This document shows positions 8,973-59,050 of a stretch of DNA of 64,000 nucleotides, one piece after another. The DNA comes from a virus (Duplodnaviria; Caudoviricetes): IMG/VR virus record IMGVR_UViG_3300042477_000769, one strand, 5' to 3'. A program made the translations under genes and the position numbers. The notes under the pieces were generated by a model. It did not search any database, was not told the DNA's origin, and saw only the letters and a program-made list of their open reading frames with translations. Position 1 is the stretch's first letter. The number at the start of each line of letters is the position of its first letter.

Positions 8973-9770
8973 ATGAAAGACAAAATTTGTAGCACCTGCC
9001 AAATTACTAAAGATATTTCTTGTTTTCACAAAAATAAAACCAAATTAGATGGATTAAGCAATATTTGCAAACCCTGTAAATCTTTATATTATCACGGATT
9101 TAAAAAAGAAAATACTAGAAAAATGTTGTTGCAACAACAGCTTAAACATTGTCCACAATGTCAAGAAATTAAACCTATTTCTTTATTCTTTAATAATAAA
9201 TCCTCAGCTAATAAACTGTCCACTTATTGCAAAACTTGTTCAGTCATTAAAAATAATCAATATTATCAACAACATAAGCCAAAATTAACCTGTCAAACTT
9301 GTACGACTTCTATTGCTAGAGGTAAATTTTGTCCAGAGTGTCGTATTATTCACAAAAAAGAATATCGAAAATTATTTGAAAGAAAGCAACGTCAACAGAT
9401 AGAATATCGGCTCAAGAATAATATTTCACGATCGGTTCGAGAGATGTTATTGTTAAGAAACAAAAGCAAAAGAAATCGCACAATTGTTAATTATTTAAAT
9501 TATTCGGTTAATGAATTAGTGGCTCATTTAGAATCTAAATTTGAGCCCTGGATGAATTGGGATAATTATGGAACATACAATAAAAATGTTTGGAATGACC
9601 AGGATATAAATACTTGGACATGGCAAATTGATCATATCATGCCTCATAGTTATTTCAATTATACCTCTTTAACAGAGGAAGCATTCCAGCAATGCTGGGA
9701 TCTGAATAATTTGAGACCTTTATCCGCCAAAGCCAATATACACAAAAGCAATTATTATGGCCAAAAATAA
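8973..9770 (+). CDS. HNH endonuclease with three N-terminal CxxC...CxxC zinc fingers (free-standing homing-endonuclease-like)
   Basis: HLESKFEPWMNWDNYG...WQIDHIMP...NNLRPLSAKAN; paralog of three other genes in the window. Confidence 0.85.
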   Translation: MKDKICSTCQITKDISCFHKNKTKLDGLSNICKPCKSLYYHGFKKENTRKMLLQQQLKHCPQCQEIKPISLFFNNKSSANKLSTYCKTCSVIKNNQYYQQHKPKLTCQTCTTSIARGKFCPECRIIHKKEYRKLFERKQRQQIEYRLKNNISRSVREMLLLRNKSKRNRTIVNYLNYSVNELVAHLESKFEPWMNWDNYGTYNKNVWNDQDINTWTWQIDHIMPHSYFNYTSLTEEAFQQCWDLNNLRPLSAKANIHKSNYYGQK

Positions 9771-10080
9771 ATTAATTCTTAATAAATGTGAAATTGAAGG
9801 GTGTCAAGAGACAGAAAATTTACATTTGCATCATATTATTGAAAGAACAGAATTAAATACCAATAATCATCCTTTTAATCTTAGTATTTTGTGTCCTAAT
9901 CATCATGCACATGTGCATAGTGGTAGATTAAAAATTATTGGAGTGTTCCCATCTACACAGTTACCGAATAAAAGAACCTTAATCTATGAATTAGATGGTA
10001 AAAAGAATGTAGACATAGATCGACCTTATATCCAATTTACTAATAAATCATTTAAAATTCATGGAGAAAGTAATGAGTAA
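9757..10080 (+). CDS. Small HNH endonuclease
   Basis: CEIEGC...LHLHHI...NLSILCPNHHAHVH. Confidence 0.85.
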   Translation: MAKNKLILNKCEIEGCQETENLHLHHIIERTELNTNNHPFNLSILCPNHHAHVHSGRLKIIGVFPSTQLPNKRTLIYELDGKKNVDIDRPYIQFTNKSFKIHGESNE

Positions 10081-10405
10081 GTTTAAAATTGATGCGACTA
10101 ATCCTGACAATATCAGTAATAAACCCACTAATGAAGCTGAGACTCGTAAAAAGTTTTTAACCGTGGCTAGTTGGGCCGGTCGTCAAAAAGATATGTTAAC
10201 TTTGTTTTATAAATTTGATAAATTAAGAAGAGAAGCTAAAACAGAAGAACAAAAAAAAGATCTAGGTAAAATCGGAGCGATTGAAGTATATAGATTATTA
10301 GGAGATTGTTTTGCTACTTTAAAAGCTAATGGAGCTTTAGTTCTTCCCGGTGTCGAACGTGGAGAATTATGGGTAGACGGAGAATTAGTATATAAAGAGA
10401 AATGA
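10073..10405 (+). CDS. Hypothetical protein (start revised to 10073)
   Basis: SD GGAG at 10063 upstream of ATG 10073. Confidence 0.6.
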   Translation: MSKFKIDATNPDNISNKPTNEAETRKKFLTVASWAGRQKDMLTLFYKFDKLRREAKTEEQKKDLGKIGAIEVYRLLGDCFATLKANGALVLPGVERGELWVDGELVYKEK

Positions 10406-10421
10406 TACGATTAAATCTTAA

Positions 10422-10471
10422 GTTTTAAGTAATTACGCCTACTTAAAACCAAAAAATTATTAAAGGGCGTA
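10422..10471 (+). promoter_or_regulatory. Predicted H-type RNA pseudoknot in the cold-shock gene leader
   Basis: S1: GTTTTAAGTA 10422-31 pairs with TACTTAAAAC 10440-49 (10 bp). S2: TACGCC 10434-39 pairs with GGCGTA 10466-71 (6 bp). SD AGGA at 10475. Confidence 0.65.
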
Positions 10472-10484
10472 TTTAGGATAAGAC

Positions 10485-10724
10485 ATGAGTGAAAATAAAA
10501 AACATTATGGTGAAGTTATCTTTTTTGATCCCAAAAAAGGTTATGGTTTCTTAGAATGGCGGAGCGAAGCCGGAGAACGACAAAAGGATCTTTTTGTTCA
10601 TTTCTCTGATGTAGTCTGTGATGGCTTTAAAACTCTGTTCAAAGGACAAAAAGTTTCTTTTGGATTAGGCACCAATATGAGAGGTGAGCCTAAAGCCACT
10701 GAAGTAACCGTACTCAGACATTGA
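10485..10724 (+). CDS. csp: Cold-shock domain protein (CspA family)
   Basis: RNP1 KGYGFL, RNP2 LFVHFS and GFKTL.GQKVSF. Confidence 0.95.
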   Translation: MSENKKHYGEVIFFDPKKGYGFLEWRSEAGERQKDLFVHFSDVVCDGFKTLFKGQKVSFGLGTNMRGEPKATEVTVLRH

Positions 10725-10725
10725 G

Positions 10726-11010
10726 TTATTTTTTTAGAAATATTTGAATTATTTGAATGACTAAAGAAAGCAATCCAGTAATGAATAATACTTGAATTCG
10801 AAATAAATCTTTATTAGTAGCATCAGCCTGAACTAAGATTTTATCTATTTTCTTATCTTGTTCAGTTTGATTCTTTTTAATTTCATTTAAAGAACCAATC
10901 ACCTCTTCATTTTGGTCTGCGACTTCGGTTTGAATTTCAATAGATTTTTTGTTAACCTCTAAAATGAAGTCCAGGTCTTGTTTCTTTACATTATCATTTC
11001 GTTCGGGCAT
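10726..11010 (-). CDS. Coiled-coil protein with a C-terminal transmembrane helix
   Basis: Heptad-like N-terminus; hydrophobic IQVLFITGLLSLVIQIIQIFL followed by KK. Confidence 0.65.
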   Translation of the reverse strand: MPERNDNVKKQDLDFILEVNKKSIEIQTEVADQNEEVIGSLNEIKKNQTEQDKKIDKILVQADATNKDLFRIQVLFITGLLSLVIQIIQIFLKK

Positions 11011-11029
11011 GCCTGGTTCCTTAGGTTAA

Positions 11030-11200
11030 TTATTTTGTTTTCTTACTAGCCTTTCTGGTCTTTATTTTATTAATTACCTTTTCGCATTTTTCATTCAAAT
11101 TTTTATACTCTTCCAAAATTTCATCCAGGTGCTCAATATTAGCTGGCTCTGGAGGGTCCATAGTATCATTAGATGTACTCACTAATCGTTTAAGAGACAT
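11030..11200 (-). CDS. 56-aa protein absent from the ORF track (MSLKRLVSTSND...TRKASKKTK)
   Basis: Hand-translated; SD AAGGTG upstream; fills the gap between two co-oriented genes. Confidence 0.7.
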   Translation of the reverse strand: MSLKRLVSTSNDTMDPPEPANIEHLDEILEEYKNLNEKCEKVINKIKTRKASKKTK

Positions 11201-11202
11201 AA

Positions 11203-11589
11203 TCACACCTTTTTTCGAAGATTATCCAAATCTACCATATCGGCATTTTCTTTAGCAAATTCTTCATCAGACATATTTAATTCTTCATAGGTATCTTCTT
11301 TAATAGCAAAAATAGAGCGTTCTCGAGAAGGAATATTACTATTTTGTTGAAAAGACATTTGTGCTTTAGCGATTATGGGAGCCACTTTTCTTACTACTAA
11401 CTTATCCCGTTTCTTAAATAAAGAACCGGATTCAGCAGATTTTTTTAATTGCTCTAAATTATAGTAGTAGTGACGAGTATCCATTAAATTAACCGAAGTG
11501 TAAGCTTTAATAGTCAGATTCAAATCTGATAAGCTAACATTTCGATTAGAAATATTGGTAATCCAAAACTCTGGATGGGTTTTATCCAT
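11203..11589 (-). CDS. Hypothetical protein, probably leaderless
   Basis: 128-aa ORF; no SD; -10 box 6 nt before the ATG. Confidence 0.7.
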   Translation of the reverse strand: MDKTHPEFWITNISNRNVSLSDLNLTIKAYTSVNLMDTRHYYYNLEQLKKSAESGSLFKKRDKLVVRKVAPIIAKAQMSFQQNSNIPSRERSIFAIKEDTYEELNMSDEEFAKENADMVDLDNLRKKV

Positions 11590-16784: not shown

Positions 16785-18140
16785 ATGGCAAACCCTCCAA
16801 ATCCTACAAACCCTAATATTACTACTGGCGCGACTACGGGCCGAGTAGCGGCAGATCGATATGATTTTCAAAAACATATAGTAGGAGAAGATTTTCGACA
16901 TGATGGCTATTCTTTAGATTTAACACCACCCGTCGTTATTAATTCAGTATCTTATCCTAATGTTCATGCCGCTATTTCTCAGCTAGCTAATTTAATAAAT
17001 CCACCACCTCCGCCTGATGCCACGGCTTCAGTTAAAGGTTTAGTAAGATTAGCTGGCGATTTAGCCGGAACCAGTACCAGTGCGTTAACTCCCAGAGTTT
17101 CTGGTTTACAAGGATATCCAGTTAATACTTTAACTCCTACTTCGGGTCAAATCTTAACTTGGAATGGTAGTGCTTGGGGCCCAGCAGCCGCTCCTGTTAG
17201 TTTTACCGCAGGTGGAGATTTAACAGGGTCTAGTACTGATCAAGAGGTAATAAGTTTATCTGGAGCGGCTAATCTAGTTACTATGTTATGTGGAATTTTT
17301 ACCTGGGATCCTGCTATTAGCAATCCAACTATTTCACAACTAGCAGAGCCATCAACTAATGCAAGAAATTTAACAGTAGTAGCTCAATCTGCCACCGCAT
17401 CAGCTACAAATGGGGGCGCTTTAAGACTTAGAGGCGGAACTAGTGGAGCTGGTGGTTTAGGTGGAGGAATAGAATTTCAAGTGGCAGGACAAAGATTATT
17501 ACATGCGTCAGAAGTTGCTTCGGGTCGTAGAGTTTTAGCTTTAGCTGGTAGTAGCAATGTTACTACAACTAATATGCCCGCTAATACTGGAGATAGAGTT
17601 ATTTTTATTCATGATAGTGCGACTGCGCCTACTACTGGCATTCCAGTAGGCGGAGTTATTTTATATTCCAAAGCAGGAGTATTGTGGAATAAAAATGCTG
17701 ATGGTTATGATTTTGCAATTGGATCTAGCCCTAATCCTAGAATAAATGGAGATGAAAAAACTTCATTTATATTTGAATATCGTGCAGAAGTTGTTACGAC
17801 TACTGGAACAACAGATGAGATGTTTACTAAAATTTTTAGTGATCCTAATTTTTTTGACTCGACTGTGAGAGTAGAAGCCAAGATTTTAGGCAGACAAAAT
17901 CCTACAGCTAATGCTATGATTGTTAATTTAACCAATTCTTATGTTGTTAATAGTGCTGGAACATTAACTGCTATGGGTGTTATTAGTAGTATAGACCCTA
18001 GAAATACTGCTGGAGCCTCTGGTTGGACTGTTCCAACTATTACTATTTCTGGAAACAAATTAGATATAGTGTCTGGAGCCAATGCGTCAACAACTATTCA
18101 TTGGGCCGCATTTATCAATATATATGTCAATCACTATTAA
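16785..18140 (+). CDS. Fibre/whisker-like trimeric virion protein
   Basis: PDATASVKGLVRLAGDLAG and GQILTWNGSAW.P fibre motifs; Gly/Thr/Ala-rich. Confidence 0.65.
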   Translation: MANPPNPTNPNITTGATTGRVAADRYDFQKHIVGEDFRHDGYSLDLTPPVVINSVSYPNVHAAISQLANLINPPPPPDATASVKGLVRLAGDLAGTSTSALTPRVSGLQGYPVNTLTPTSGQILTWNGSAWGPAAAPVSFTAGGDLTGSSTDQEVISLSGAANLVTMLCGIFTWDPAISNPTISQLAEPSTNARNLTVVAQSATASATNGGALRLRGGTSGAGGLGGGIEFQVAGQRLLHASEVASGRRVLALAGSSNVTTTNMPANTGDRVIFIHDSATAPTTGIPVGGVILYSKAGVLWNKNADGYDFAIGSSPNPRINGDEKTSFIFEYRAEVVTTTGTTDEMFTKIFSDPNFFDSTVRVEAKILGRQNPTANAMIVNLTNSYVVNSAGTLTAMGVISSIDPRNTAGASGWTVPTITISGNKLDIVSGANASTTIHWAAFINIYVNHY

Positions 18141-18186
18141 TATTCAATGAATACTAATTAAATTGTATCCAATACAAGGAGTTTGT

Positions 18187-21600: not shown

Positions 21601-24600
21601 AAGTAACTCCTGGAATTAGCTCCACTTTAAAAATAAACTGGTTAGTCTGTATTAATTCTTTAGGAGATTATGAAATCTTACCGTTATTAGATCCAGATCC
21701 TATTTTAAATACGTCTAGCAATACTAATAGAGCTTTTGTTGGGCAAAACTTAGTCAATGGCGGAAGTTATAATTTAAATGGGACTACTTTCTCTAATGTT
21801 ATTAATAATAGAAAAGATTTAACCTTATTATATATTGCTGCCGCCACTTCAGTAGCTATTAATCCGCCTACTGTTAGCTTAGTAGTTCATGATATTAGAA
21901 AATTTGTCAATGATGGCGATACTATCTTACCATTAAAATTAACTTCAGCTAATAGTCAAGGTAATTTTAAAAACATTGTGCCAATTTTTAATTGGATTAA
22001 ATATAATAATGCTTTTAATGGTACCGTTATTGTTAAAGGCGCGAATGTTAATAATGCAACTGTTGCTGCTGCCACAGAATTACATTTTACTAGTGGAAAT
22101 GTTACTATAGATGGTCAAAATAATGCAACTATTACTTTTAATTCTGCCTTAACAGTAGGATCTAATTTAACATTTAAAGATTCGATATTAAATTTAAATG
22201 CTGGCATGTTTATTAAAACAAATGCCACTATTACCAATTTAATATTTGAAGGCTGCACGTTAAACGTTATTTTACCATCTTCTGCACCTAATACTACTGC
22301 GCTATTAGATATTAATAATGGAAGTAATATTAAATTTAAAGATTGTACTTTTAATGTAACTTGGAATAAAAGTTTGCCAGTTCAATCTTATGGATTGGAA
22401 ACTACTTTTCCCTGTTTAATTAGAGCGACTAATACGAGTAATTTTATCGTAGATAATTGTGTGATGTCTGTAGATTATACTACTGCTAGCGTAGGAGTTC
22501 CTCCTGGCGGACATATTGTGCTCATAGATAGTGATGATGCAATTATTAATAACTGTACTTTTAGTGGAAATACTGATAAAACTTTAACTATTAAAAGCTC
22601 TAATAATGTTAAATTTACAAATTGTAGTGTATCATCTACTTATAATCCCGTAGATGATGGATTTGATGCTACTAATTTGGTTAGTTCAGAAAGTGGTTAT
22701 GTTTATTGTAGAATGGATAATCCAGTAGATAACATTTTAATTGATAATATTTCTTTTAATTATGTTCCGGCAGGAGATCCAGCTGCAGATACGGATCTAA
22801 ATATTAGATATCCATTTATTAGTTTTGAATTAGTAGCGTTAAATGCCACTTTAAGCAACTTAACCATTAATAATTGTAAATTTAATCATTTAAATACTGG
22901 AGCAGTAGTTACTGATATTAGACCAGGTATTGCTATTGTCAATACATATTCTGCTTTAGCTGGACCCACATTACCTAATGCCCAACAAGTTAATTTAATT
23001 AATGCTAATATTACTAAGAATATTGGTAATAGAAACCAATCTATTATCATTACTTCTAGACGCGATAGCGCTGGATTAATGAATTATCCTGGATTAGCGG
23101 CTCAAGGATGTAACATTAAAGATAATATTTGCGGAAATATTGGATATTTTATTTCTAGCGCCGTACAAACAGTTAATTTATCTCCCAACTATACTAGTTT
23201 GCCAGATAAATTAACAGGTTTAACTATTGAAAACAATGTCTGTCATTATATTTATAATTGTGACGAAGATGGTTACTCTTTCTTAATGTCTAAATTAGTA
23301 GGCGGCTCTAGTTCTAATCGTTGCGCGTATCCAAGTGGGTATGTAGATATTAATAAAAATAAGGCCAATTGGATTCATGTCGGTTGTGCTTATGAACAAC
23401 AAAGCGGGCTAAATATTACTAATAACGTACTTCAAGCATATTCAGAATCTTATTTAAATATGTTTGGAGCTAATGAAGGTAATTTTTATGGACCAGTCTC
23501 TGGTACTCGTTCTTTTAAGTATGCTATTTTTGTAAGTACTAATAAATATAAGATGAATCCAATACAAAGCCCTTCAGAAGGGAATGATACTTCCATTTTA
23601 ATTTCTGGAAATATTGTTAATCAGGGTTACTGGTATTTATCTAATGGTGTAGTTAACAATTATACTTATACTAATGGCTATATTTTCTGTCAAGGTTCTA
23701 GCACTATTACAGATAATATTTTAAGAGGTGCTGGTGTAGGCAATTTAATTCTAGTTGGTGGTTTACGTAATATTATCAAGGGAAATAAAATTTATCGAGA
23801 TAATATTGATGTTACCTCTTACATTAGATTTGATAATTTTGATACTCCTAATTGGGATAGTAACCCAGACGGAGAGGGTGCTGGTTCTCAAGGCTTAGTA
23901 GTAGATAATTTCTTTGATAAACCAACAATTAATGCTGTCGGAGTAACCGGATCATTTAACGGATTATCTTTTTTTGGAGCGATAAATATTCCTTCTACTG
24001 CGGCACCTGGATGGATTGTAGAAAGAAATAAAAATCAAACAGGAATTGCCATTGTTCCCTGGACTAATGGTCATATATTATATCATACTACAGGTGGATC
24101 TGCTTTTGGACCAGATGGTTATGATGACCTTTATATGAAACCTGCAAATAATAATCCTTCAGGAACTTTTACTGGAGAATATCGCTCTAGAGTTTTAAGA
24201 TTTAGAGATACAGAATCTGTTGGTTTTAGATTATGGGGAGTTCAGGTTAATTTAGAGGCATTTTTACCAAATGGAGTTCGAGTGTTAGAAGTTTCTTCGG
24301 CTATTCGATCTTTTGGCACCCAAGTTGATTATAATCCAGCATCTCCTCCAGCAGCTACTTCTAATTTTTGGATTAATTTAAGTTCACAAGATATGCAAAA
24401 TATCGGAGTAGGAACTTTTTCTTTAGATAATTTTAGCACAGTTTCTGATAACGATGATGGTGTATTTGAAATTAATAACACTGTCTTTTCTAATGTTACA
24501 GGCGGAGATTTTAATTCTAGTAGCTTAGCTCTTCCTTTTGAAATTGACTTAACTAACTATAATGGAAATGATATTTCTAATAGATACATTACTGGCCGAG

Positions 24601-24707: not shown

Positions 24708-25529
24708 ATGGGCGCAAATAATTTCTTTAAAAGCAATTTAATGTCTTTACATAACGTGGTACAAGCCTCCATGTTAGTGTATCCTAAAGAAGTTATTATT
24801 GCTACGTTAAGAGATTATTTCTCTAAAGATGATTATTATCATTATGCCAAAGATCAATGGGGTTTTGCTAACACTATCGATCATACTGATTTACCTCCAG
24901 GGGCCGATATTCCAACCTCTCATAATCAATATGGAGCCAATGAAGAGGGATTAAGCACTCGGGTGTTTATTGGAGAAAATTATCGATATAATGGAATTTA
25001 TTATCCAGCTATTTTAGTCAAAAGCGGCGGCAGTACTTATGTGCCTATCTCTATTAATAGAGAACAGGAAGCTGTACAATATGAAGATATTGTATATGAA
25101 GATGGATATGGTAATCAAACTGTAGTTTCTAAACCTAAAGCTTTTGTGACAGCTGGTGCCTGGGAAGGCAGTATTATTATTGATATTTTATCTAGAAGCT
25201 TGCGAGCAAGAGATGATTTATCAGAAGCTATTGCTATGTGTTTTACTGAATTTTATTTTGATAGTTTATATGATATTGGAATTATTGTAAAACCTCCAAT
25301 TATTGGAGGCGCCAGCGAAACTGATGATAGAAATGATAAGCTTTTTCGCCAAAGTATTACGTTAAATGTTAGAACTGAATGGCGAAGAGAGATTCCAGTA
25401 GGCAATTTAATTGATACTATCTTTTTTACCGTTATTTTTGAAGATATTAGCAAGCCCGCTAATCCAGTACCTGCTAATTTAACTATTAATACCGAAGTTA
25501 GTTTAACTGATTTGTTAATCAATCTATGA
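24708..25529 (+). CDS. Putative tail terminator/completion protein
   Basis: YPAILVKSGG, GSIIIDILSRS...RDDL and LFRQSITL; directly upstream of the sheath. Confidence 0.6.
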   Translation: MGANNFFKSNLMSLHNVVQASMLVYPKEVIIATLRDYFSKDDYYHYAKDQWGFANTIDHTDLPPGADIPTSHNQYGANEEGLSTRVFIGENYRYNGIYYPAILVKSGGSTYVPISINREQEAVQYEDIVYEDGYGNQTVVSKPKAFVTAGAWEGSIIIDILSRSLRARDDLSEAIAMCFTEFYFDSLYDIGIIVKPPIIGGASETDDRNDKLFRQSITLNVRTEWRREIPVGNLIDTIFFTVIFEDISKPANPVPANLTINTEVSLTDLLINL

Positions 25530-26203: not shown

Positions 26204-26249
26204 ATAATACTATATAACAATGAATATTTACTTTTAATGGAGTTTCATA

Positions 26250-30783: not shown

Positions 30784-31668
30784 GTGAAGACCAAGTTTTT
30801 TGAACAAGCTCCACTGAGACACCAAAATAAATATAATTACTCGCAAGTCAATTATGTCGATCATAAAACTAAAGTAATTATTATTTGCACTCAACATGGG
30901 GAGTTTTCACAGACTCCCCATGCGCATTTAAAGGGGCAAGGATGTCCAGTTTGTGGTCGATTAAAAACTAGACAAGCTAAAAAATTAACCACTGCACATT
31001 TTATTACCCGAGCTCAACAAAAGCATGGAAATAAATACTCTTATTTGAAAAGTAATTATCAAGGCCAAGATCAATTAATCGAAATTATTTGTGCTACTCA
31101 TGGAAGCTTTTTCCAGCGAGCAGCGGATCATTGGAGTGGGCACGGTTGCAATCAATGTGCCATGCAACAACGACATCAACAATTATCTTTAACTACTGAA
31201 CAATTTATTAACAAATGTAAAATAATACATGGAGATAAATACAATTATCATTTAGTTAATTATTTAAAACAAGACGAAATGGTGGAAATAGTTTGTCCGT
31301 ATCATGGTAATTTCTGGCAACGAGCAGTTTATCATCTACAGGGTTGTGATTGCCCTAAGTGTGCGTTAAATGGCATTTCTGAAGGAGAAACTATCTGGTT
31401 AAACGGTTTAGATATTAAGGAGCGTCAAGTTACTTTAGTGATTGACAATAAAAAAATTAAAGTAGATGGTTACGATAGAGATAATAATACAATTTATGAA
31501 TATTATGGAAATTATTGGCATGGTAATCCTCAAGTTTTTGAGCCAGAAGATATGAATAAATCAGTCGGATTAACTTTTGGGGAATTATATCAAAAAACAT
31601 TAGATCGGGAACGATTAATAAAAAAGGCGGGATTTAATTTAATAATAAAATGGGAAACGGATATATAG
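30784..31668 (+). CDS. DUF723-repeat endonuclease with a C-terminal PD-(D/E)xK/Vsr-like domain (homing-like)
   Basis: Three repeats of H.NKY.Y....Y......V.IIC..HG.F.Q....H..G..C..C; KVDGY...IYEYYGNYWHG. Confidence 0.8.
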   Translation: MKTKFFEQAPLRHQNKYNYSQVNYVDHKTKVIIICTQHGEFSQTPHAHLKGQGCPVCGRLKTRQAKKLTTAHFITRAQQKHGNKYSYLKSNYQGQDQLIEIICATHGSFFQRAADHWSGHGCNQCAMQQRHQQLSLTTEQFINKCKIIHGDKYNYHLVNYLKQDEMVEIVCPYHGNFWQRAVYHLQGCDCPKCALNGISEGETIWLNGLDIKERQVTLVIDNKKIKVDGYDRDNNTIYEYYGNYWHGNPQVFEPEDMNKSVGLTFGELYQKTLDRERLIKKAGFNLIIKWETDI

Positions 31669-42861: not shown

Positions 42862-42868
42862 GGTGAAT

Positions 42869-43219
42869 ATGAGAAAATTAAATAGTGTTATTTATAATAA
42901 GTTATTAGCTCAAGCAGAAGAAGCGAAAGATCAAGGTCATACTAAATTAGCTAATTCTATTCATGTGTGTATTGGAGCTTATCCAGAAAATGAAGTGACG
43001 GAATATGAATATTCTCAATTAGAAGAAGACCTTAAAATGGAAATGTGGAAAGCGGCAGCTAATGTTATTAACTACTATGGCGTAGAGAGTGTAGATGCGG
43101 AAAAAATGGATGAAGCATTAACCGCCTGTGCTAATAAAATGTTAACAGAATTAGAACAAGTATTAGGAATAGAGAACAAATTTGGACCTTTTGAACCAAA
43201 AGTATTAGGCCAAAAATAA
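42869..43219 (+). CDS. Small helical hypothetical protein (start revised to 42869)
   Basis: SD GAGGTG precedes ATG 42869. Confidence 0.65.
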   Translation: MRKLNSVIYNKLLAQAEEAKDQGHTKLANSIHVCIGAYPENEVTEYEYSQLEEDLKMEMWKAAANVINYYGVESVDAEKMDEALTACANKMLTELEQVLGIENKFGPFEPKVLGQK

Positions 43220-43243
43220 TATTTTGAAGTTATATAATAAATA

Positions 43244-47604: not shown

Positions 47605-47668
47605 ATAAAATATATAAACAATCTCAAGATAAAAGTATGACTCGTGTTAATTTTAAAGGTAGTGTACT

Positions 47669-58929: not shown

Positions 58930-59050
58930 TAGCTCAATAATTCAATATAAATGTATGACAGGTAGAAATTTTAATTCCAGCTGGGCCTTGATTAATTATG
59001 GGGCACTATCAGCCACAAACCATATTGTAGATAATAATGGGAGATAAATC

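Follow-up and report, generated by a model that had tools for sequence, protein, structure and literature searches.

Closest described systems

In rpsO, the gene of ribosomal protein S15, a pseudoknot near the ribosome-binding site (RBS) of the regulated gene is in equilibrium with nested hairpins; the initiation region is part of this pseudoknot, which keeps the 30S subunit trapped together with S15. The cold-shock gene cspA of E. coli has a structured leader as its 5' UTR, and the RBS is exposed to a different extent in its alternative folds. Phage operons also have intercistronic stabiliser or processing hairpins (e.g., the RNase III sites of T7), local stem-loops between co-transcribed genes that could uncouple their expression. 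Cold-shock proteins (Csp) and gp32 of phage T4 are both OB-fold single-strand binders, and a cold-shock domain covers approximately 6–7 nt. In the operator of T4 gene 32, a pseudoknot located 67 nt upstream of the AUG nucleates the cooperative binding of gp32 along an unstructured, A+U-rich UUAA(A) tract that overlaps the RBS (PMC3014915). A T4 review from 2010 describes it as possibly the sole viral pseudoknot involved in translational autoregulation (PMC3014915).

The leader analyzed here is the spacer upstream of a cold-shock gene (csp) in a phage sequence of 64 kb, which is referred to in full as the window. Its putative pseudoknot, consisting of stems S1 and S2 and loops L1 to L3, resembles the gene 32 operator in its position in a phage leader (the 5' end lies at −63, compared to 67 nt upstream in T4), in the nature of the gene product, a small single-strand nucleic-acid binder, and in the enrichment of UUAA(A)-type repeats. 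In contrast to T4, there is no unstructured 3' tract, with only 13 nt from S2 to the AUG, and the UUAAR copies lie partly upstream of S1, partly inside it and partly where L3 meets S2, whereas the T4 repeats follow 3' of the pseudoknot. The T4 element is moreover common to T2, T4 and RB69, while the csp leader is confined to one species. The cspA leader differs in that the spacer discussed here comprises 79 nt within an operon and has a Shine–Dalgarno (SD) exposure predicted to be independent of temperature (nested model). Compared to rpsO, the SD and AUG are situated outside the pseudoknot and there is no Rfam match. Lastly, S1 is only 10 bp long and AU-rich for an intercistronic phage hairpin, and such hairpins need no S2.

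Organization of the csp locus

The features of the locus are collected in Table 1. The csp product belongs to PF00313 (54.1 bits against a gathering cut-off of 27, residues 8–76) and to phrog_729, cold shock protein. An N-terminal extension is excluded and the start codon is fixed because a TAA is present in frame at 10479–10481, upstream of the ATG. For the upstream 114-aa protein, searches of Pfam and PHROG gave no match. At the other end of csp, its stop (10724) is separated by 1 nt from the stop of a convergent minus-strand gene (10726–11010), without a terminator-like hairpin, and the convergent transcripts should therefore overlap. A small minus-strand gene at 11030–11206, after a 94-aa gene, varies between 43, 56 and 58 aa in its annotations on contigs with identical DNA, which reflects the start choice of the gene caller and not sequence variation.

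Table 1. Coordinates of the csp locus in the window.
Feature	Position	Strand	Remarks
Upstream 114-aa gene	10061..10405	+	Stop TGA; conserved 5' neighbour of csp in the phage group
Intercistronic spacer (csp leader), 79 nt	10406..10484	+	Noncoding; 27% G+C
S1 5' arm GTTTTAAGTA	10422..10431	+	Can pair instead with 10473–10484 (nested fold)
L1 (AT, 2 nt)	10432–10433	+	L2 = 0
S2 5' arm TACGCC	10434..10439	+	Within the S1 loop; a GC island (the spacer has two)
S1 3' arm TACTTAAAAC	10440..10449	+	Exact reverse complement of GTTTTAAGTA
L3 (CAAAAAATTATTAAAG, 16 nt)	10450..10465	+	A-rich; same in the variant strain
S2 3' arm GGCGTA	10466..10471	+	Ends 3 nt before the SD
Shine–Dalgarno AGGA	10475..10478	+	After TTT; 6 nt before ATG 10485
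Start-codon segment	10479..10489	+	Pairs with 10417–10427 in the nested MFE fold (alternative, RBS-closing)
csp, 79 aa, cold-shock domain protein	10485..10724	+	RNP1-like KGYGF and RNP2-like VHF motifs

An earlier note on this DNA had described an H-type pseudoknot next to the RBS of csp, and its pairing geometry can be read directly from the sequence. S1 comprises ten perfect Watson–Crick pairs closing an 8-nt loop, and S2 six perfect pairs, of which the 5' strand lies inside the S1 loop and the 3' strand downstream of S1. The loop lengths and the distance from S2 to the AGGA are likewise as described. The two stems are compatible with each other only in the form of an H-type pseudoknot. U10440-G10465 could add a seventh pair to S2, with the loss of one pair from S1. 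L1 would have to span the 6 bp of S2 with 2 nt and L3 the 10 bp of S1 with 16 nt, lengths that fit the usual rules of thumb for the crossing of the deep groove of S2 by L1 and the shallow groove of S1 by L3. S1 contains only two G-C pairs, and the only two GC clusters of the spacer are mutually complementary and make up the two arms of S2.

The leader as an insertion into a conserved gene pair

The 114-aa gene and csp are adjacent in many large phage contigs of up to approximately 500 kb. Related loci were taken from IMG/VR (L001–L027), JGI metagenomes (L031–L047) and Logan, JGI and ENA (L028–L030 and L177–L179). Across these relatives, identity amounts to 35–71% for the upstream protein and 59–75% for Csp, and homologues of the upstream gene at 57–71% identity are located directly 5' of csp in related jumbo-phage contigs. 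The distance between the upstream stop and the csp ATG in 46 relatives ranges from −29 to +37 nt, with junctions that are usually ATGA or TAAATG overlaps, or TAAAGGAA followed by 4–8 nt and ATG. Two loci deviate from this, L004 with 583 nt and L019 with 683 nt, as an HNH endonuclease gene is inserted at the junction. The csp leader is absent from the 46 related contigs, the closest of which have 70–71% identity in the upstream protein; the databases contain no homologue of this protein between 71% and 95% identity. The leader does occur in 14 other contigs from several lake-water samples, at least 99.7% identical to the window over 1–4 kb and 100% identical in the spacer. These contigs represent the same phage population as the window and are thus uninformative.

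Since the relatives have a gap of at most 37 nt, an overlap or an HNH gene at this junction, the comparison identifies the 79-nt leader as an insertion specific to the lake jumbo-phage species of the window. The ancestral state was probably a tight, translationally coupled expression of the 114-aa gene and csp. Because the relatives have a stop–start overlap or a gap of at most 37 nt, csp needs its own RBS in the window. The tight or overlapping gene pair recurs in dozens of jumbo-phage contigs (L001–L047 and L177–L179), which suggests coupled expression and perhaps a functional partnership of both proteins.

A serious alternative to a functional leader, with nearly the same likelihood, is a neutral insertion: recent functionless DNA, for instance a rearrangement scar at a homing-endonuclease junction, with a complementarity that has no role at the RNA level. 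S1 would then perhaps be a by-product of the origin of the insertion, and S2 a product of chance. The presence of the spacer in one species only fits this explanation, as do the HNH genes at the same junction in two relatives (L004:917-1501 and L019:2851-3535) and the two HNH-type genes directly upstream in the window (8973–9770 and 9757–10080). This pattern suggests that homing endonuclease genes have a local hot spot here. The spacer itself, however, does not resemble the L004 and L019 HNH inserts or any other part of the window. DNA similarity to GenBank phages was not found either. A repeat or mobile element was rejected as the identity of the spacer, as there is no second copy of the leader or its motif in the 64-kb window. 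The 265-aa HNH-type gene of the window resembles the L019 insert C-terminally (e.g., WTWQIDHI, NLRPLSAK) and has no counterpart in L028.

Variation in a second strain

A single variant strain carries a diverged copy of the leader. It is represented by a JGI contig of 2464 bp (sample 3300059473) that encodes an upstream protein (P0001) with 95% identity, an identical Csp and a spacer of 77 nt. A 151-nt contig from a metatranscriptome library (10359–10511), recovered from four runs compared with 9900–10900, evidently stems from the same strain. The variant spacer is shorter because of two single-base deletions at 10408 and 10410, both 5' of S1, and has four substitutions (A10420G, G10422T, A10435G and A10471G). 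Two changes in the upstream gene, at 10390 and 10399, are synonymous, in agreement with the identical C-terminus of P0001.

The earlier note had named a lack of S2 conservation as a point that would refute its reading; in this one variant, S2 can still pair: A10435G converts an A-U into a G·U pair and A10471G a U-A into a U·G pair. G10422T removes the terminal S1 pair (G10422-C10449), while A10420G offers a new possible pair (G10420-C10450) past a small internal loop, resulting in an extended S1 hairpin in the minimum free energy (MFE) fold of the variant. The S1 core, L1, L3 and the SD are unchanged. In simulations, two random hits in the S2 arms both preserve pairing with a probability of 0.07–0.15, and three hits in the helix arms leave all internal pairs intact with a probability of 0.09. 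The pattern is hence compatible with structural constraint, but not significant.

The same variant also informs on the neutral alternative. The spacer has diverged by 5% (four substitutions over 79 nt) plus two indels, compared to 1.4% in the flanking coding sequence, all at synonymous sites. Its divergence is thus close to the synonymous rate. Three of the four substitutions are located at helix positions, so that purifying selection is not apparent, which speaks for a functionless insertion. On the other hand, both changes in S2 maintain pairing, and the 79 nt have persisted in two diverged strains despite the high compactness of the genome. Such a retained spacer is unusual because approximately 96.5% of the window is coding according to a crude gene model.

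Non-randomness of the pairing

For an H-type score, the nearest-neighbour stacking energies of the best helix pair were summed. The observed pair scores −26.1 kcal/mol, with 9 bp in S1 and 7 bp in S2 (including U10440-G10465). Dinucleotide shuffles of the 82-nt stretch average −11.0 ± 2.8 kcal/mol, and none out of 2000 attains the observed value, which argues against a purely accidental complementarity. The scan behind the earlier note, however, covered 64 kb, so that a correction for the search applies. The window contains 12 pseudoknot-compatible pairs that are as good or better (five on the plus and seven on the minus strand), mostly inside genes, and four shuffled 64-kb strands yield best scores of −25.5 to −27.7 kcal/mol with about one such locus per strand. 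The abundance of comparable pairs is in line with a neutral origin. Conversely, noncoding DNA makes up only about 1775 nt in 14 gaps of at least 40 nt under the same crude gene model, and based on the 64-kb rates, only 0.02–0.17 such pairs are estimated to occur there by chance.

S1 is the fourth-longest inverted repeat listed for the window. The pattern of its 10+10 arms has no match in viral contigs. The 9+9 arm pattern occurs in 8 viral and 106 genome stretches, but these have other loops and flanks and were dismissed as unrelated chance hairpins. Unrelated natural hairpins that share the S1 arms were collected from 596 Gb of genomes and IMG/VR, in 228 strand instances; 16 of these (7%) have a loop complement of at least 6 nt within 45 nt downstream, a base rate that again favours a neutral explanation. 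A GC-rich S2 in a spacer with 27% G+C should nevertheless be rarer than this 7%. Taken together, the S1/S2 pairing is non-random locally and borderline after correcting for the search.

Predicted alternative folds and the ribosome-binding site

RNAfold considers nested folds only; the energy of the pseudoknot is a rough estimate. The MFE structure of 10406–10500 is a nested fold of −15.7 kcal/mol (z-score of −2.4 to −2.6), and the nested MFE at csp ranks fourth of the 46 gene starts in the window. This predicted fold retains S2 and replaces S1 by pairing of 10417–10427 with 10479–10489 and of 10430–10432 with 10473–10475, covering part of the SD and AUG. For the pseudoknot, the S1 hairpin alone contributes −8.7 kcal/mol and S2 stacking −12.6 kcal/mol, against a pseudoknot penalty of roughly 8–10 kcal/mol. 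The resulting rough estimate is approximately −11 to −16 kcal/mol. By this estimate, the pseudoknot would be comparable to the nested fold in energy and not clearly better. Two mutually exclusive conformers that share S2 are thus plausible in the model: a pseudoknot that opens the RBS and an extended hairpin that closes it. In the variant strain, the nested fold of the reference has a predicted energy of −10.8 kcal/mol, while its own MFE structure is a different fold of −12.0 kcal/mol with a z-score of −0.36; the nested MFE of the variant is not unusual.

Two predicted near-isoenergetic, mutually exclusive folds that open or close the RBS could point to a sensor or operator, as the earlier note had proposed along with a ligand switch, in which Csp binds its own leader by analogy with T4 gp32, or in which the pseudoknot and the nested fold constitute a thermosensor as in cspA. 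We consider such a role unlikely. In the nested model, the SD is predicted to be equally accessible at temperatures between 4 and 37 °C, and the spacer has no match to the Rfam cspA leader. In addition, the relatives encode csp without a leader, implying that leader-based autoregulation is not a property of this Csp family.

A search of Rfam at permissive thresholds, also with the short stretch alone, returned only sub-threshold noise. The fluoride riboswitch was rejected at 10.4 bits (threshold of 34; E = 1.9), and the cspA thermoregulator (RF01766) at 16.3 bits (threshold of 78), for a hit at 10587–10660 in the csp coding sequence and none in the spacer. No other riboswitch model appeared among the hits, including the pseudoknot types known next to an SD (preQ1-II/III, SAM-II). 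These scores rule out that the leader belongs to a known riboswitch family or to the cspA thermoregulator.

The base composition of the leader bears more specifically on the operator variant. Five copies of TTAAR are present in the spacer, three of them at a 7-nt spacing (10411, 10418 and 10425). In a comparison with dinucleotide shuffles, the P value of this density is 0.009. Among 3197 sampled stretches of 79 nt, the spacer alone has at least five copies, the highest TTAAR density in the window. The likeness to the T4 gene 32 operator, which includes UUAA(A) repeats (PMC3014915), is weakened by the location of the copies in helices and L3 instead of in an unstructured 3' tract, and the UUAAR excess is in part simply the S1 palindrome. 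It is improbable that Csp binds its own UUAAR-rich pseudoknot leader and tunes its own translation, which would make the leader a recent counterpart of the operator bound by T4 gp32, likewise combining an OB-fold single-strand binder with a pseudoknot and UUAA repeats. If true, such an operator would have arisen in a single species by insertion into a formerly coupled gene pair.

Transcription and DNA-level signals

The earlier note had named an absence of the leader from the csp transcript as a point that would refute its reading. Contigs from two RNA libraries (X19 and X24), metatranscriptomes of different studies, extend continuously across the leader, from the last 45 nt of the upstream gene into csp. 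The X19 contig (10361–10526) equals the window, and the X24 contigs (10359–10511 and 10497–10645) correspond to the variant strain. They fit co-transcription of the leader and csp, although contaminating DNA in the RNA libraries could yield the same. The RNA runs give no cover at 9900–10358 and 10646–10900, which is not readable as an absence of transcription. Contigs of both libraries start at 10359 or 10361, 45 nt before the stop codon of the upstream gene. This shared start hints, though weakly, at an RNA 5' end or a processing site. No sigma-70-like promoter was detected in or near the spacer, nor upstream of 10359/10361.

S1 starts 16 nt after the stop of the upstream gene. As an intercistronic hairpin, it could be a terminator, attenuator or RNase processing hairpin before csp, or it could terminate the minus-strand genes that converge on csp and read into it. 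The latter would suit the closely spaced convergent stops, which have no terminator between them, and the shared start of the RNA-library contigs would agree with processing. Yet, no terminator-like site is found on either strand over 9500–11500, S1 is AU-rich and is followed by an A-run rather than a U-run on the plus strand, and the RNA-library contigs run through the hairpin. This explanation is therefore very improbable. A frameshift or readthrough stimulator for the upstream gene was also discarded, as a TAA lies in frame two codons past the TGA and there is no slippery site.

The same palindrome may also be viewed at the level of the DNA. A perfect 10-N8-10 palindrome with three TTAAGT half-sites, two direct at a 7-nt spacing and one inverted, may be bound by a phage or host protein, in which case the RNA pairings would be incidental. 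Such a site could be an operator before csp or a recognition or recombination site. The junction being a hot spot for homing endonuclease genes in relatives is in keeping with a DNA-level site. We regard this as quite unlikely given that the spacer lacks a promoter-like site, the motif has no second copy in 64 kb, the outermost palindrome position is broken in the variant and the complementary GC islands are left unexplained.

Several signals elsewhere in the window were observed in passing. TATAAAT- or TATATAA-like motifs in the gaps before large genes (26204–26249, 42862–43243, 47605–47668 and 58930–59050) recall T4-type late promoters; the csp spacer has none. The palindrome TATTAATA is central in several listed inverted repeats (18135–18150, 23348–23355, 25052–25063, 25484–25491 and 21801–21808). 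A G+C-rich 11-bp hairpin (GGGGAGT...ACTCCCC, 30894–30923) marks a minus-to-plus gene boundary, and the 264-nt stretch beyond it (30898–31161) is unassigned in the crude gene model and may be coding. One possibility is that the hairpin terminates transcription in both directions and that a small unannotated or decayed gene follows.

Proposed role and significance of the leader

Our preferred reading, held tentatively, is that of a young, lineage-specific, cis-acting structured leader that gave csp its own, structure-modulated initiation after the loss of coupling. The recent insertion of 79 nt would have broken the ancestral translational coupling between the 114-aa gene and csp. The leader would be located on the same mRNA as csp and act in cis. 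The pseudoknot formed by S1 and S2 would leave the SD and AUG single-stranded, while in the alternative fold S2 would sit within an extended nested hairpin, with the 5' arm of S1 paired to the SD–AUG region. The balance between these near-isoenergetic folds may then set the efficiency of ribosome initiation on csp, and the hairpin may also shield the csp part of the transcript. The complementarities, the status as an insertion and the bridging RNA-library contigs are direct observations from which we infer that the structures form and affect translation, as well as the direction of this effect. Points that weigh against a structured leader include the lack of conservation beyond one species; moreover, at a chance probability of about 0.1, the wobble-preserving pattern in the variant falls short of significance. 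The neutral alternative comes close to the preferred reading in likelihood.

The finding of most use concerns evolution: the leader was inserted between two genes that otherwise form a conserved, probably coupled pair. Should it lack a function, the locus serves as a caution that a striking pseudoknot-compatible pairing occurs about a dozen times in 64 kb of AT-rich phage DNA. If it is functional, it would be a very young cis-regulatory RNA caught at birth, in which a widely conserved, ancestral coupling has been replaced in one lake jumbo-phage species by a structured leader and a separate RBS, and a clean natural case of how leader structures, possibly including a pseudoknot operator, arise.
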